Source of the DNA: a virus
Taxonomy: Duplodnaviria > Heunggongvirae > Uroviricota > Caudoviricetes
Length of the DNA: 54,182 bases
Reading direction: 5' to 3' (one strand)
IMG/VR virus record: IMGVR_UViG_2585427735_000009
Shown here piece after piece: positions 36,178 to 50,789 of the stretch. Below the pieces are notes generated by a model, which made no database searches, was not told where the DNA came from, and worked only from the letters and a program-made list of their open reading frames with translations. Position numbers and translations under genes: made by a program. Position 1 is the first letter of the stretch, and each line of letters opens with the position of its first letter.

Positions 36178-36255
36178 CGCATCACCTCTGGCAGGCGCCA
36201 ATGTTAGACTGAAATTGACGCCCGATGTTGATTATTAATAATCAGCTATGAAGTT

Positions 36256-42468: not shown

Positions 42469-42888
42469 TTAAGAGGCTTTTTGTTTTTTCTTTCGTGCTA
42501 ACTCTTCGTAAATTGCATTGTACTTCTGTTTTTTCTCCTCAAGAGTTTTTAAAAGTTCATCTGTCTCACTGTCAGGGAGCTCGTCCAGAAGGTCAATGAT
42601 GATTTTTTGTCTTGGATTTAACTCCTGATAGAAACGTATCTGTCCACTTTCTTCTGTATCCTCTCCCAAAAGATAGGTTGGTGTTGTTCCAATGAGTGTT
42701 GCTAATTCCCTTAATTTCTCTCGGCGAGGAATTGTTTCACCATTAAACCATTTGCTAACCGCTTTTGGTGTTAATTTCATTCGACGGGCAATTTCTGCCT
42801 GCCTTCCATGTTGTTCATAACCAGCGTTTTCACAGGCTAGCGCAAGCCTACTGGCGAACTCTTTACGCGCTTTATCTTCATGAACCAT
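42469..42888 (-). CDS. racR: XRE-family prophage repressor (RacR-like)
   Basis: 139 aa; HTH ..RQAEIARRMKLTPKAVSKWFNGETIPR..; divergent from ydaS-ydaT. Confidence 0.65.
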   Translation of the reverse strand: MVHEDKARKEFASRLALACENAGYEQHGRQAEIARRMKLTPKAVSKWFNGETIPRREKLRELATLIGTTPTYLLGEDTEESGQIRFYQELNPRQKIIIDLLDELPDSETDELLKTLEEKKQKYNAIYEELARKKKQKAS

Positions 42889-42967: not shown

Positions 42968-43222
42968 ATGAACCAGAAAACACTTGAAGATGTAATCAAA
43001 ACTGTTCGCGTTTCTGTTGTGGCCGACGTTTGTGGTGTCAGCCAAAGAGCAATCTACAAATGGATGGATAACGGAAAATTGCCTCGCACAGAATATACCG
43101 GCGAAACAAATTACGCTGAAAAAATCGCTCATGCATCAAACGGATTATTTTCTGCCGATGCAATTTTAACTATTGGCAGAAATAAAACTACTACGAAAAA
43201 GCTGATGGGAGTTGATTCATGA
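42968..43222 (+). CDS. ydaS: Cro-like HTH protein YdaS
   Basis: ATG at 42968 (MNQKTLEDVIKTVRVSVVADVCGVSQRAIYKWMDNGKLP...). Confidence 0.7.
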   Translation: MNQKTLEDVIKTVRVSVVADVCGVSQRAIYKWMDNGKLPRTEYTGETNYAEKIAHASNGLFSADAILTIGRNKTTTKKLMGVDS

Positions 43223-43641
43223 AAATCAAGCATGAGCACATCGAATCAGTGTTGTTAGCCCTGGCAGCCGAAAAAGGGCAGGCGTGGGTCGCTAACGCAA
43301 TTACTGAAGAATATCTGCGCCAGGGGGGCGGCGAATTGCCCCTGGTACCAGGCAAGGACTGGAACAATCAGCAGAATATCTATCATCGTTGGTTGAAAGG
43401 TGAAACGAATGCGCAAAGGGAAAAAATTCAGAAACTGATCCCTGCGGTTCTGGCAATTCTTCCTCGCGAGCTGCGTCACCGACTCTGCATCTTCGATACC
43501 CTGGAACGCCGTGCATTACTGGCGGCACAGGATGCACTGAGTACGGCAATTGATGCGCATGATGATGCAGTCCAGGCCGTTTACCGTAAAGCACATTTCA
43601 GCGGCGGCGGTTCTCCTAGCGATTCTGTCGTAGTGCATTGA
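43219..43641 (+). CDS. ydaT: YdaT-like protein (cII-position regulator/toxin)
   Basis: 140-aa ORF overlapping ydaS stop by 4 nt. Confidence 0.7.
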   Translation: MKIKHEHIESVLLALAAEKGQAWVANAITEEYLRQGGGELPLVPGKDWNNQQNIYHRWLKGETNAQREKIQKLIPAVLAILPRELRHRLCIFDTLERRALLAAQDALSTAIDAHDDAVQAVYRKAHFSGGGSPSDSVVVH

Positions 43642-43686
43642 TTGAAATTAATCGTACCGAACTGTTTTGTTCGGTATCAGTTAAAT

Positions 43687-44104
43687 GTAACGCTGCGAGC
43701 GTTACAAGGTGAAAACAAATGGCTTCAAACTGGATAAAGCTCGAAGTTATTACGCCGGATAAGCCGGAAATATTCAGGCTTGCTGAGATTCTGAATATTG
43801 ATCCAGATGCCGCATTAGGGAAAGTCATTCGCTTCTGGGCATGGGCGGATCAACAAATGATAGACGGTAACGCAGAGTGTAACGCTCGAGGCGTTACAAA
43901 AAGTGCAATAGACCGTATCACTTTTATGGCTGGTTTTGCTGATGCGTTAATTCAGGTTGGATGGCTGGTCGAAAGTGATGGAGTGCTTTCACTACCAAAC
44001 TTTGAGCGTCATAACGGAAAAAGCTCGAAAAAACGGGCGGTTACAAACGAGAGAGTTACAAAAATACGCGAACTGAAGCGAAAAGGTAACGCTGCCAGCG
44101 TTAC
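43687..44104. repeat. Three perfect palindromes GTAACGC-N5-GCGTTAC plus GTTACAAA half-sites (putative iterons/origin)
   Basis: Palindromes at 43687..43705, 43879..43897, 44086..44104; extra half-sites near 43867, 44039 and 44054; one upstream of and two inside the ydaU reading frame. Confidence 0.55.
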
Positions 44105-44507
44105 ACAAACGGATCAAAAAGCGTTACCAGAGGAAGAGGAAGAGGAAGATATAAATACTGATCTCCCCCTAAATCCCCCTCGGCAAAAACGAGCGTCTAA
44201 ACAATTCGAGCCGGAGGCCATTGCTCTGCCCGACTGGTTGCCAGAAACACTCTGGAATGAGTGGGTCCAGTTCAGGCAGGCATTGCGAAAACCGATTCGA
44301 ACGGAGCAGGGCGCTAACGGGGCGATACGGGAACTGGAAAAATTCCGCCAGCAGGGTTTTACCCCTGAGCAGGTGATTCGACACAGCATCGCCAATGAAT
44401 ACCAGGGCTTGTTCGCGCCGAAAAGTGTTCGGCCTGAGACGTTGCTCCGACAGGTTAACACTGTCTCGTTTCCGGACAGTGCGATCCCGCCAGGCTTCAG
44501 GGGGTAA
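43719..44507 (+). CDS. ydaU: Replication initiation protein (lambda O-position, YdaU-like)
   Basis: 262-aa ORF directly upstream of DnaC-like gene; acidic linker (EEEEEEDINTD); contains iteron-like palindromes. Confidence 0.7.
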   Translation: MASNWIKLEVITPDKPEIFRLAEILNIDPDAALGKVIRFWAWADQQMIDGNAECNARGVTKSAIDRITFMAGFADALIQVGWLVESDGVLSLPNFERHNGKSSKKRAVTNERVTKIRELKRKGNAASVTQTDQKALPEEEEEEDINTDLPLNPPRQKRASKQFEPEAIALPDWLPETLWNEWVQFRQALRKPIRTEQGANGAIRELEKFRQQGFTPEQVIRHSIANEYQGLFAPKSVRPETLLRQVNTVSFPDSAIPPGFRG

Positions 44508-44513
44508 CTGACC

Positions 44514-45260
44514 ATGAAAAATATTGCGACAGGCGGCGTTCTGGAACGTATCCGCAGACTGGCCCCGCCACATGTAACCGCGCCATTCAGGACGGTGGCG
44601 GAGTGGCGCGAGTGGCAACTTGCAGAAGGCCAGAAACGTTGCGAGGAGATCAATCGCCAGAATCGTCAGTTGCGGGTGGAAAAAATTCTGAATCGCTCCG
44701 GCATCCAGCCGTTGCACCGCAAATGCTCGTTTTCGAATTACCAGGTGCAGAACGACGGCCAGCGATACGCGTTGAGCCAGGCGAAATCCATCGCCGATGA
44801 ACTGATGGTCGGGTGTACAAATTTTGCGTTTAGCGGAAAACCTGGTACCGGAAAAAACCATCTGGCGGCGGCTATCGGGAATCGCCTGCTGAAAAACGGT
44901 CAGACAGTGATTGTGGTTACCGTGGCTGATGTTATGAGTGCTCTACACGCCAGCTATGACGACGGGCAATCAGGCGAAAAATTTTTGCGGGAACTGTGCG
45001 AAGTGGATCTGCTGGTTCTTGATGAAATTGGCATTCAGCGCGAGACAAAAAACGAGCAGGTGGTACTGCACCAGATTGTTGATCGCCGGACAGCGTCGAT
45101 CCGCAGCGTGGGGATGCTGACAAACCTGAACTATGAGGCCATGAAAACATTGCTCGGCGAGAGGATTATGGATCGGATGACCATGAACGGCGGGCGATGG
45201 GTGAATTTTAACTGGGAGAGCTGGCGCCCGAATGTTGGTCAGCCAGGAATTGAGAAGTAA
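44514..45260 (+). CDS. ydaV: DnaC-like helicase loader (IstB-like AAA+ ATPase)
   Basis: 248 aa; Walker A GKPGTGKNHLAAAIG, Walker B LLVLDEIG. Confidence 0.85.
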   Translation: MKNIATGGVLERIRRLAPPHVTAPFRTVAEWREWQLAEGQKRCEEINRQNRQLRVEKILNRSGIQPLHRKCSFSNYQVQNDGQRYALSQAKSIADELMVGCTNFAFSGKPGTGKNHLAAAIGNRLLKNGQTVIVVTVADVMSALHASYDDGQSGEKFLRELCEVDLLVLDEIGIQRETKNEQVVLHQIVDRRTASIRSVGMLTNLNYEAMKTLLGERIMDRMTMNGGRWVNFNWESWRPNVGQPGIEK

Positions 45261-46447: not shown

Positions 46448-46656
46448 CGAGATTAAAGACCATTAATTCATATGTGAATTGACAGTTTCATGGCACAGGA
46501 TACGGCTAGCGTGGTTGTCTGTTTTGTGCCAGGGGCGGGCCTAACTAAGTTCACACAACATTGATTATTGAAGATTAGGTCAGAAATAAATAGGTTATTT
46601 TGATAATTTAGTTACGTTAGAATGCCGCAGTGTACAAAGTAAAAATGAGGAATAAT

Positions 46657-48018
46657 ATGACTCGGAGTGAAATAAACGTCTGGGATAAGAGACGAGGCAC
46701 CAATAGTCATCGTGTGGAGGAGATTCGATCTGAAGCTCAGCACGACCTTTCTCGACTGATTCACTCGTCTGCTTTCAGACGATTGCAATCCAAAACACAG
46801 GTTCTTGGTCTGGGTGAAAGTGATTTCTACCGCACACGACTGACTCATTCTATGGAAGTCGCACAAATCGGTTCAGGTCTTCTTGCTAAGCTGAAAATAA
46901 AATATAAAGGTAAAGAGCAAGAGCAATTTTTACCAGATAACGATCTTATGCAGGCAGTATGTCTCGCACATGATATTGGACATCCTCCATTTGGTCACGG
47001 CGGTGAGGTAGCTCTTAACTACTGTATGCAGGATTACGGTGGTTTTGAAGGAAACGGTCAGACACTTCGCATTCTCTCGAAACTAGATAAGTATACCGTT
47101 GAACACGGACTCGATCCTACACGCAGACTTCTGCTAGGCATACTGAAATATCCGGTTAAATACTCGGATCTAGTGGTTACAAAAGACAGAATCCCGGCCA
47201 CTATCGGATCGCCGAACTGGCTCTTTAAGTCATCTGATTTTAAACCTCCAAAATGCTATCTAGATTCAGAATGCGATGTTGTAGAATTTGCTCTTTCACC
47301 ATTTACTGAACAGGATCGGAGGCTTTTTACTTCCGTTGAAGATGGTCAAACTAAATCCGATCATAAAAAAGCTTCTTATAAAGCTCTCGATACAACCATC
47401 ATGGATCTTGCCGATGAAATTTCGTATTCGCTGCACGATTTGGAGGATGCTATTTCTCTCGGAATGGTGACACGAGAAATGTGGATGGAGCATTTCAGTG
47501 AATATGAAACCCTATTTACTAACTGCCATGGAGAAACATTTTCCGCAACATGTGAATCTGTCGCGGATAGCCTTTTTGGTGAAAGTTACAAGAGAAAAGA
47601 GTGCATCGGGATGCTGGTTCACCTGATGATTACAAGCGTTGAGCTTATTACAAAGAATCCAGCATTCGAATGTGGCATGCTCAAATATAATGCGGTCCTT
47701 CCGGAAGCGGTCGAAGCACTACGGTTTAAAATTTTCAAACTGGTCAAAAATAAAGTAATTAAGCATGAAAATGTACAGCAGCTTGAATTCAAGGGACAAA
47801 AGTTGATTGTTGAGCTTTTCGGTGTGCTGGCTAACGATCCGTGTCGGTTTCTACCGGCATCAACGAGGGAAATTTACGAGCGGCAGACTAGCTTGGACGA
47901 GAAGGCTGGTATGCGAGTCATTTGCGACTATGTTTCAGGGATGACTGATGACTATGCAACAAAGCTTTATGAGAAGATCCTTATTCCACGCAAAGGGTCT
48001 ATTTTTGACCATCTCTAA
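46657..48018 (+). CDS. dGTP triphosphohydrolase (Dgt-family HD-domain dGTPase); candidate anti-phage dNTP-depletion enzyme
   Basis: ATG at 46657 with GAGGA RBS; motifs AFRRLQSKTQV, RTRLTHSMEVAQIG, AHDIGHPPFGHGGE, LADEISYSLHDLEDA match Dgt HD-domain signatures as recalled; AT-rich relative to Rac core. Confidence 0.82.
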   Translation: MTRSEINVWDKRRGTNSHRVEEIRSEAQHDLSRLIHSSAFRRLQSKTQVLGLGESDFYRTRLTHSMEVAQIGSGLLAKLKIKYKGKEQEQFLPDNDLMQAVCLAHDIGHPPFGHGGEVALNYCMQDYGGFEGNGQTLRILSKLDKYTVEHGLDPTRRLLLGILKYPVKYSDLVVTKDRIPATIGSPNWLFKSSDFKPPKCYLDSECDVVEFALSPFTEQDRRLFTSVEDGQTKSDHKKASYKALDTTIMDLADEISYSLHDLEDAISLGMVTREMWMEHFSEYETLFTNCHGETFSATCESVADSLFGESYKRKECIGMLVHLMITSVELITKNPAFECGMLKYNAVLPEAVEALRFKIFKLVKNKVIKHENVQQLEFKGQKLIVELFGVLANDPCRFLPASTREIYERQTSLDEKAGMRVICDYVSGMTDDYATKLYEKILIPRKGSIFDHL

Positions 48019-49562: not shown

Positions 49563-50789
49563 TTAAAATATATATTTTATATCAACCCAATTTTTAGCAT
49601 TATTGTCAACTAAAGTAACGCTATGTCCATGACTTGAATTTATAGCATCGATTACTGATTGTGATGGGTGTCCATGTGAATGACCATCCGACTGAGCTAT
49701 AAACAAAACATTATCAAAATCCGCAATTATTTTTTGATTGAAATTTAATTCCGAACCATGATGAGGTAATGTCATCACCCTTACCGTTTTAATCACTTTT
49801 GAATAGAATTCAGCCCATTTATTATAATACAATGATGTATTAAGCTTTGAGTCACCTGTTAATAAAACAGATCTAATTCCTTTATCTCTATCAAAGAGAA
49901 AATGTCGCTCAACCCGACTATTTCTAAAACTAAACCACTCACGAGAAGGCTCATTAACAATTTTCATCTCAGCTTCTTGATTATTAATAATCAAGAGATT
50001 GATTGATATTACATTATGATCGCCAGCAAGTTTTAAATAACACTCGCGTAATTTCTTTCTTTCCCCCGTGCTAGTTAATATTTTAAGCATTTTTTTCTTA
50101 CTTAACTCAGTAAAACCATTTTCTATTAACTGCTGACTGAAAATTTCAATTTTCTTACGTGAACGGGGCGGTATCCAAGAAATAAATGACATTAGTGTAT
50201 CAGTTTTGTTTTCCCCAATCCTTTTAACCAACCAACGGTTACATTCAACATCTCCTTTGGAGTCAGATATTTTCATTGGTAAGCTTACAGCGCTATCCTT
50301 AATGTTTTCACTATTAAATATAGGAGGGTCAAAATTATCATCAATATCACAGGGGTAAAGCAAAGATATATCTACCTCAGGCAACCTTGATTTTATCCAT
50401 TTGACAGGATCAATGAGAAATTCCATAAAAAGACCTGACGTAGAATTAGAGCATAGCTCCGATGCAATTAAGTAATAGCTATCATGGATATCTAGGTATG
50501 GTAATACAACCTTGCGTATTTTGTTATCTACAAGCTGACATAAATGGTCAAATCCATTTATATGGTCTGAATCCAAATGAGAGATGTATACCACATCAAT
50601 ATATTTCTCATCAATATTAAAGAGAGATTTAGCCACATCCATCTCCCTACGCAACGCATTTAATTGGTCACTTCCGCAGTCATACACATAACTGTAAAGC
50701 AAACTACCATCCCTTCCCCTCAGTCCGCCTAAACTAAATCCACCCTGGCCAACGGGAAACAATCTTTTATGAAATACTTCTCCGCTCAT
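49563..50789 (-). CDS. Standalone metallo-beta-lactamase-fold hydrolase (ComEC-type motifs), candidate nuclease
   Basis: 408 aa, ATG at 50789 with AAGGA RBS; MBL motifs HLDSDH (HxHxDH), LTGDSKL and LPHHGS; very AT-rich. Confidence 0.7.
   Translation of the reverse strand: MSGEVFHKRLFPVGQGGFSLGGLRGRDGSLLYSYVYDCGSDQLNALRREMDVAKSLFNIDEKYIDVVYISHLDSDHINGFDHLCQLVDNKIRKVVLPYLDIHDSYYLIASELCSNSTSGLFMEFLIDPVKWIKSRLPEVDISLLYPCDIDDNFDPPIFNSENIKDSAVSLPMKISDSKGDVECNRWLVKRIGENKTDTLMSFISWIPPRSRKKIEIFSQQLIENGFTELSKKKMLKILTSTGERKKLRECYLKLAGDHNVISINLLIINNQEAEMKIVNEPSREWFSFRNSRVERHFLFDRDKGIRSVLLTGDSKLNTSLYYNKWAEFYSKVIKTVRVMTLPHHGSELNFNQKIIADFDNVLFIAQSDGHSHGHPSQSVIDAINSSHGHSVTLVDNNAKNWVDIKYIF

Follow-up and report, generated by a model that had tools for sequence, protein, structure and literature searches.

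The IMG/VR virus record IMGVR_UViG_2585427735_000009 (Caudoviricetes), whose 54,182 nt are referred to here as the window, includes the early rightward operon of a Rac-like Escherichia coli prophage, and within this operon a gene predicted to encode a replication initiator. Three copies of the palindrome GTAACGC-N5-GCGTTAC (pattern GTAACGCNNNNNGCGTTAC) lie around and inside this gene, together with isolated single arms and a purine-rich tract. An earlier note, made from the sequence alone, had listed three identical palindromes starting at 43687, 43879 and 44086, one upstream of the initiator start codon and two in the coding sequence, and had proposed that they are either initiator-binding sites of a lambdoid-style origin or operators. 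Their placement was found to be as described. The first palindrome precedes the ATG (43719) by 32 nt, and two full palindromes and at least four half-sites are located in the interior of the open reading frame (ORF). The elements of this region are, in order of position:

43687-43705: site 1, GTAACGC-tgcga-GCGTTAC, in the 77-bp spacer between ydaT and the initiator gene
43719-44507, plus strand: initiator ORF, 262 amino acids (aa)
43719-44135, plus strand: N-terminal domain and linker of the initiator (aa 1-139), the presumed origin-binding domain
43866-43873: extra left-arm half-site GGTAACGC, a full heptamer 12 bp before site 2
43879-43897: site 2, GTAACGC-tcgag-GCGTTAC, in the coding sequence of the N-terminal domain (C-N-A-R-G-V-T)
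44040-44047 and 44055-44062, plus strand: two weaker half-sites GTTACAAA, 15 bp apart and oriented as right arms
44086-44104: site 3, GTAACGC-tgcca-GCGTTAC, in the linker after the N-terminal domain (G-N-A-A-S-V-T)
44121-44128, plus strand: solitary right-arm half-site GCGTTACC, a full heptamer after site 3, directly before the polypurine tract
44129-44149, plus strand: polypurine tract AGAGGAAGAGGAAGAGGAAGA, encoding EEEEEED, a candidate unwinding or helicase-entry zone
44147-44163: short AT-rich stretch AGATATAAATACTGATC, with GATC at 44160-44163

These three palindromes are the only exact matches to the pattern in the window, with none outside 43687-44104, and no match was obtained in any of 100 dinucleotide-preserving shuffles of the window, which places the sites far beyond chance expectation. 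All three have a perfect 7-N5-7 symmetry, and their start-to-start intervals of 192 bp (site 1 to site 2) and 207 bp (site 2 to site 3) agree with the spacing of roughly 190-210 bp given previously. The heptamer GCGTTAC (either strand) is present 19 times in the entire window, compared to an expectation of 5.1, and 8/19 copies are located within the 441 bp from 43687 to 44127. The earlier note had recognised the GTTACAAA half-sites, which are indeed present at 44040 and 44055, but had missed the two further full heptamers, GGTAACGC and GCGTTACC. The first of these is encoded in a 4-aa insertion (DGNAECNARGVT, versus DGNAxxVT in most relatives). At site 1, the arms can be extended to the 9-bp TGTAACGCT/AGCGTTACA (43686-43706), and the Shine-Dalgarno sequence AAGGTGA begins right after this site, which ends 1 nt before it.

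Relatives of the initiator were collected by searching with its N-terminal 139 aa, and scans of genomes and viral contigs gave 151 loci, of which 89 are non-redundant, down to ~40% identity. Their hosts include Enterobacterales, Pseudomonas, Burkholderiales, Xanthomonadales, Planctomycetota and Verrucomicrobiota (including Akkermansia), among others, and a scan of 1.84 billion cluster representatives returned 6,706 matches at E<=1e-3 and 4,189 at E<=1e-10. In the phage collection, the N-terminal domain was found in the 'Escherichia phage Rac' record, the Shiga toxin (Stx) phage TL-2011b, epsilon15 and SPN1S-like Salmonella phages, and further in Xanthomonas CP2-like, Ralstonia and Pseudomonas phages, with annotations that vary between 'DNA replication protein O', 'primosomal protein I' and hypothetical. 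The palindrome, allowing <=2 mismatches, is present in nearly all loci at +148, +151 or +160 and at +337 to +412 from the ATG, and only four matches at this threshold were located outside -300/+700 across ~150 loci, two of these four being sites displaced by an insertion sequence (IS) in one E. coli locus (L003). Across phyla, inheritance of the sites goes together with that of the N-terminal domain, and the conservation of the sites, which had been proposed for checking among Rac-like prophages, extends far beyond these.

Within the 89 non-redundant loci the arms are nearly invariant and the 5-nt spacer is free to vary, and even the close E. coli relatives (93-98% identity) display several spacers per site with just two single-base arm changes. 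An upstream site at -32 to -44 was detected in many, but not all, Enterobacterales relatives and was absent in other phyla, making site 1 the least conserved of the three and the intragenic sites 2 and 3 the universal ones. The distance between sites 2 and 3 ranges from 189 to 231 bp, with one locus at 264 bp, and clusters at 207, 209 and 219 bp, with 204 and 216 bp also represented. A +148/+160/+174 pattern is common to a subgroup of Enterobacterales, and GTTAC at +321/+336 recurs in only part of the Enterobacterales relatives; the role of the GTTACAAA half-sites is less certain. Two types of damaged locus were also observed. In E. coli FDAARGOS_1249 (L003:943-2010), an IS5-family element with a 9-bp target duplication (CTCGCGGCG) is inserted in the right arm of site 2 and splits both the gene and the palindrome, and two viral contigs that are close relatives (L100 and L126) have a broken initiator ORF (123 and 112 aa to the first stop) and have kept three perfect palindromes.

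Palindromes are absent from three Verrucomicrobia homologues (L031, L042 and L053), and the same loss was found in seven further loci (L036, L039, L043, L045, L050, L059 and L060). The neighbours of the three Verrucomicrobia genes are ordinary host genes (sulfatase, glycosyltransferase, UvrD) with no adjacent replication partner gene, and these homologues can thus serve as a natural negative control, in that the palindromes are lacking where a replication partner is also lacking. The C-termini of their proteins, ...QPMLF or ...QPLLF, are similar to a beta-clamp-binding motif, and these are possibly domesticated host proteins.

We compared codons within site 2 to those of other invariant residues. 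The reading frame of site 2 is constant (G-N-A-x-x-V-T). Gly50 is encoded by GGT in 63/78 sequences, compared with 9-39% for four other invariant glycines, Asn51 by AAC in all 69 (69-74% for two other invariant asparagines), and Val59 by GTT in 73/82 (25-32% for the controls). GCGTTAC is the most conserved 7-nt window in the DNA of the N-terminal domain, and the best-conserved third-codon positions after those of TGG and ATG all fall in the arms of site 2 or, in one case, in its spacer. Site 3 was found in frame 1, 0 or 2 in 38, 18 and 6 loci, respectively, encoding for instance V-T-Q-S-A-L, and its presence in three reading frames points to a constraint on the DNA rather than on the peptide. 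On these observations, the intragenic sites are under selection at the nucleotide level.

Variation in the arms is symmetric, and concordant between sites 2 and 3 within a locus (co-variation is given as raw locus counts, with kinship ignored). The variant GTCACGC/GCGTGAC is present in eight loci on at least three sequence backgrounds and couples an Asn-to-His change with a synonymous GTT-to-GTG change; GTTGCGC/GCGCAAC occupies both sites of L038, and CTAACGC/GCGTTAG was detected in L056. A solitary half-site of the same core follows site 3 within 45 nt in 52/70 loci, where chance would give ~4% per locus, and in all loci with the GTGAC and GCAAC variants this half-site carries the variant as well (GCGTGACC, GCGCAACC), at 11 or 22-23 nt. 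Such solitary half-sites have no pairing partner and nevertheless co-vary with the palindromes, which favours a protein that reads duplex DNA in a sequence-specific manner over a pure hairpin function. The pentamers GTTAC/GTAAC reach a density of 10.6 per kb between -150 and +480, compared to 1.29 per kb in the rest of the loci, with the extra copies at a pitch of 11-12 or 23 bp around sites 2 and 3.

The region after site 3 has the same order in nearly every relative, with the half-site GCGTTACC followed by a polypurine tract (AGAGGAAGAGG... or AGAGAAGAGAAG...) and then an AT-rich stretch (GATATAAAAGAT); in most Enterobacterales relatives, the polypurine tract is followed by GATATAAA(A)GAT. 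The maximum purine content per 24 nt averages 0.94 in the relatives, whereas the background has a median of 0.67 and its 99th percentile is 0.83. Among the 22 codons that come after site 3, arginine is encoded by AGR in 89/109 cases, compared to 229/1142 in the remainder of these genes (odds ratio 17.7, p 1.5e-38), which shows that the polypurine tract is under selection at the DNA level. Over 43990-44170 of the window, the AT skew is +0.45 to +0.59. Directly after the AT-rich stretch, a C-tract motif CCCCCTAAATCCCCC (encoding P-L-N-P-P) is located at 44165-44181, with GATCCCCCCCTAAATCCCCCCCGGGGG in the ydaU gene of E. coli K-12 (L001:2520-2548) and CCCCCCTTACCCCCCAAGGGG-like C-tracts in relatives from other phyla, whatever the type of N-terminal domain. 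This C-tract may represent either a protein motif with which the C-terminal domain begins or a further DNA element (a C6...G6 hairpin).

The gene downstream of the initiator encodes a helicase or a helicase loader, the type of which varies. It is lambda-P-like in L114, L130 and L133, and DnaB in L015 and, by its length of ~467 aa, probably also in L018. L011 has a Toprim-DnaB primase-helicase at this position, L024 shares the IstB/DnaC-like AAA+ type of the window, and the product in L151 is an AAA+ ATPase of a less specific kind. Relatives with other C-terminal domains were found, many of them with the DnaT-like PF17948, and the C-terminal domain and the downstream partner gene change together. 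The N-terminal domain and its sites are the sole constant across the loci, and the palindromes accompany this domain whatever the C-terminal domain or helicase partner.

The same modularity was apparent when the window was compared with the Rac prophage of K-12. The genes and segments that surround the sites are:

42469-42888, minus strand: gene for a cI-like helix-turn-helix repressor
42968-43222, plus strand: gene for a cro-like helix-turn-helix protein
43219-43641, plus strand: gene for a YdaT/cII-like protein
43642-44145, plus strand: cassette exchanged relative to K-12 Rac, comprising the spacer, the N-terminal domain and all palindromes and half-sites
44136-44507, plus strand: C-terminal domain of the initiator, common to K-12 Rac YdaU, the presumed adapter to the DnaC-like loader
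44514-45260, plus strand: ydaV, DnaC/IstB-like AAA+ helicase loader (NF009043, 4.6e-152; phrog_50, DnaC-like helicase loader)

Genes with DUF1627 and DUF977 domains follow ydaV. Strain AMSCJX02 was identical over the 951-bp query (100% identity), and at least 80% of this query was covered in 679 of the 5,426 complete E. coli genomes. The initiator gene had been named ydaU in the earlier note, a name that holds for part of the gene only, as the match to K-12 Rac YdaU is restricted to residues 139-262 (97/124 identical, 78%); homology to K-12 at the DNA level resumes at 44146, and on the left side it ends at the ydaT stop codon. DUF1376 (PF07120) is detected in K-12 YdaU at 2.7e-26 and not in the window protein, for which the Pfam scan gave no match even at E<=10 save an insignificant one to DUF6760. 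Searches of Pfam, NCBIfam and PDB sequences with the N-terminal domain returned nothing usable, an hhalign comparison with DUF1376/YdaU aligned only the C-terminal parts and left the N-terminal domain unrelated, and a comparison with lambda O gave a probability of 0.1, with no match to Pfam Phage_rep_O. The only source that names the N-terminal domain is PHROGs, which labels the 262-aa protein as replication initiation protein (phrog_2509, 3e-89), whereas the RefSeq label is 'hypothetical protein'. By sequence comparison, 'ydaU' in the window is a chimera, the presumed origin-binding half of which is unrelated in sequence to K-12 YdaU, and the annotation is corrected in this respect. The DNA-binding half and its sites appear to have been swapped as one unit, a pattern known from lambdoid O genes.

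An AlphaFold2 model of the protein had a moderate mean confidence (pLDDT, predicted local distance difference test, of 73), and its fold assignment was weak. In this model, site 2 encodes a low-confidence loop (residues 51-56) and site 3 a disordered linker (residues 125-136), and the palindromes are thus predicted to lie where the protein can tolerate them. The exchanged cassette also contains a perfect 8-bp inverted repeat, TACCGAAC-tgtttt-GTTCGGTA, at 43655-43676, which lies between ydaT and the initiator gene and is separated from site 1 by 10 nt. Its predicted RNA fold has an energy of -12.9 kcal/mol (z -4.9), and the plus strand shows no T-run after it.

Taken together, we propose, with a probability of roughly 0.7, that the palindromes are the cognate sites of a winged-helix-like initiator domain without a Pfam family, and constitute an origin of the lambda type within the initiator gene. 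Of the two suggestions in the earlier note, the first is the one favoured by the comparative evidence, and it is from this evidence that we infer binding, unwinding, origin activity and the identity of the binding protein. The origin would comprise the palindromes, their flanking half-sites and the polypurine/AT-rich tract at 44129-44163, inside and just 5′ of the initiator gene. Transcription of the early rightward operon (cro-like gene, ydaT, initiator gene and ydaV) would supply the initiator, and dimers of its winged-helix-like N-terminal domain would occupy the 19-bp palindromes, the half-site centres of which are 12 bp apart and would both be presented on one face of the helix. Additional subunits may fill the solitary half-sites, which flank sites 2 and 3 at a spacing of 11-12 or 23 bp. 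At site 3, the cluster would nucleate a complex like the lambda 'O-some' beside the polypurine/AT tract, which would then open, allowing the C-terminal domain to recruit the DnaC-like YdaV with host DnaB. Sites 1 and 2, each ~200 bp from the next site, may join this complex by looping; alternatively, the initiator bound at site 1, which is located by the ribosome-binding site, may damp its own expression. Site 1 is the optional one of the three, and possibly autoregulatory.

Several points weigh against this proposal. A binding or replication experiment on this initiator family was not found in the literature searched, and no residue of the domain was found to track the change from GTAAC to GTCAC beyond the embedded Asn51His. 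Strict helical phasing between sites 2 and 3 was rejected, as the distances include 204 and 216 bp. The tract after site 3 is purine-rich more than AT-rich, with a local GC content of ~0.45, and is less AT-rich than that of lambda. The palindromes can also be folded as hairpins, at -11 to -16 kcal/mol, and the prophage in the window may be defective and its origin silent in this strain.

The foldability of the palindromes raises the alternative that they act as hairpins, either as RNA stem-loops in the early mRNA, for control of translation or stability or for antisense termination, or as single-stranded DNA hairpins or cruciforms in priming or primosome assembly. As RNA, each of the sites folds with a z of -2.8 to -4.5, the symmetric changes in the arms are those expected of compensatory changes in a stem, and many of the relatives have a DnaT-like (primosomal) C-terminal domain. 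A hairpin needs pairing rather than a fixed sequence, yet the GTAACGC arm, and TAACG in particular, predominates across phyla, and where the arms vary, two independent sites vary in concert, together with half-sites that have no partner to pair with. Departures in a single arm are mostly non-wobble mismatches (C-C, G-G, C-A), and the pitch of the half-sites fits binding to duplex DNA. The minus strand of site 3 resembles an intrinsic terminator, but the minus-strand look-alikes are within shuffle expectation, none was found on the plus strand, which lacks a T-run, and Rfam returned 0 matches at E<=1. We consider a hairpin function for these sites to be unlikely.

It also seems improbable that the palindromes are operators only, through which the initiator or another phage regulator would repress or time the replication genes, with the true origin elsewhere. 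Inverted repeats are used for autorepression by the Rep proteins of iteron plasmids, site 1 directly precedes the ribosome-binding site of the initiator gene, and a spacing of ~200 bp is suitable for repression loops. Operators of this kind would not account for site 1 being the least conserved and the intragenic pair universal, nor is there an obvious role in repression for the conserved half-site, polypurine and AT-rich tract, which match the layout of ori-lambda. No sigma-70-like promoter was detected near the palindromes in a promoter scan. Immunity operators for cI and Cro, as in the alternative offered by the earlier note, were rejected, since the cI-cro intergenic region has no GTAACGC palindrome. 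The box of the cII-like YdaT protein was likewise rejected as the identity of the palindromes, because it has a different sequence, TTGATT-N6-AATCAA, as described for CP-933P (PMC9986795). A perfect copy of this box (TTGATT-catgaa-AATCAA) is located elsewhere, at 43212-43229, where it covers the last part of the cro-like gene together with the start codon of ydaT, as it does in CP-933P, and a copy with 2 mismatches (TTGATTGAAATTAATCGT) at 43638-43655 overlaps the stop codon of ydaT, shortly ahead of the initiator gene.

The failure to find a co-varying specificity residue for the arm variants would also be expected if the palindromes were read by a host protein or by another phage protein encoded nearby, and their association with the N-terminal domain were a by-product. 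We regard this as very unlikely, as the hosts span several phyla and the N-terminal domain is the only component common to all loci, the palindromes are gone where this domain has been replaced (K-12 YdaU), and the arm variants are locus-specific. Finally, sites 2 and 3 both encode GNAxxVT in the window, and Gly50, Val59 and Thr60 are conserved, but the notion that the repeats merely reflect a peptide motif needed by the protein has a negligible probability and was rejected, given that site 1 is non-coding, that both coding sites fall in the low-confidence loop and linker of the model, and that the frames of site 3 (VTxxAL and others) and the synonymous-codon bias relative to controls are at variance with it.

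The domain and its site seem to be undescribed, as there is no Pfam family and no structure retrievable by sequence search, and the literature searched (ydaU, oriJ/Rac, the motif, iterons of replication modules, and the epsilon15 origin) did not describe this origin. For lambda, on the other hand, it is classic that the initiator gene contains the origin. A broader proposal, to which we give about even odds, is that the initiator family, which comprises ~6,700 clusters at 50% identity and lacks relatives in Pfam and PDB, and a single 19-bp palindrome constitute an ancient origin/initiator pair, whose recognition sequence has been kept from enterobacterial prophages to phages of Planctomycetota and Verrucomicrobiota, in which the site dictates the peptides of the GNAxxVT loop and the linker, and in which dispersed sites and a polypurine tract take the place of a compact iteron array. 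If true, this would make the origin predictable, and available ready-made, in hundreds of phages that are as yet uncharacterised, among them epsilon15-like phages and some Stx phages. Confirmation of the origin proposed here would show where replication starts in a widespread group of temperate phages and prophages. It would also represent a clean case of a binding site constraining the coding sequence of its own binder, and would raise the question of why specificity is fixed across phyla while the O/iteron specificities of lambdoid phages diverge quickly.

Two further features of the prophage were noted outside the origin region. A 17-bp direct repeat, TTGATTATTAATAATCA, is present at 36228-36244 and 49977-49993, with unrelated flanks; the copies are 13.7 kb apart and bracket the prophage genes, and are candidate cores of the attachment sites of the element. 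Directly after the replication genes, an ORF at 46630-48018 (plus strand, 462 aa) encodes a protein with HD and HD_assoc domains (dGTP-triphosphohydrolase-like), and AMSCJX02, the strain identical over the 951 bp, has other genes at this position. The position of this ORF suggests phage cargo, possibly a nucleotide-depleting defence gene.

One of the closest known systems is K-12 Rac, which shares the operon (cI-like repressor, cro-like protein, ydaT, initiator and ydaV) and the C-terminal domain of the initiator, has the same C-tract motif after the linker, and also has mid-gene repeats that directly precede an A-rich tract. K-12 YdaU differs in having the DUF1376 N-terminal domain and its own repeats, (A/G)ATGTTCAAACA, of which five direct copies and one inverted copy (TGTTTGAACA) are located at the equivalent place (L001:2357-2463). 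An active origin, oriJ, has been reported for Rac (PMC3945230; Potrykus et al. 2000, as cited in PMC11014345). These reports concern K-12, the initiator of which has the other N-terminal domain. The K-12 repeats are a candidate iteron set for oriJ, the position of which relative to ydaU was not found in the literature. Iteron plasmids with winged-helix Rep proteins (pPS10, F, R6K and similar) share the arrangement of repeated cognate sites beside an unwinding tract, and inverted repeats near the start of rep are autoregulatory (PMC4980987), a possible parallel for site 1.

The likeness to ori-lambda and its O protein is in the layout. In lambda as in the proposed origin, the initiator gene contains repeated sites, each an inverted repeat of ~18-19 bp, in the region where the N-terminal part for DNA binding gives way to the C-terminal part for partner binding. 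After the sites, the coding strand has a tract rich in purines and in A (PMC7466680), which is less AT-rich here than in lambda; the helicase-loader gene comes next, and in both the N-terminal domain and the sites are exchanged together between phages. The lambda origin sequence, which we inspected, has four 18-bp inverted-repeat iterons followed by a purine-rich coding-strand tract (ACAAAAGAAAAAAGAAAAGATTATT). The analogy drawn in the earlier note stands for the position of sites inside the gene, but not for their arrangement, as the four lambda iterons form one block with a pitch of ~20 bp, whereas here two or three palindromes are dispersed ~200 bp apart together with solitary half-sites. 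Unlike in lambda, one site lies inside the coding sequence of the DNA-binding domain itself and one upstream of the gene. The loader here is DnaC-like, whereas that of lambda is P, although some relatives have a P-like loader, and in contrast to the O/iteron specificities of lambdoid phages, which differ between phages, the site described here is nearly the same across phyla. From these sequence comparisons, the element would resemble ori-lambda functionally, with an initiator that is not a member of the lambda O family.

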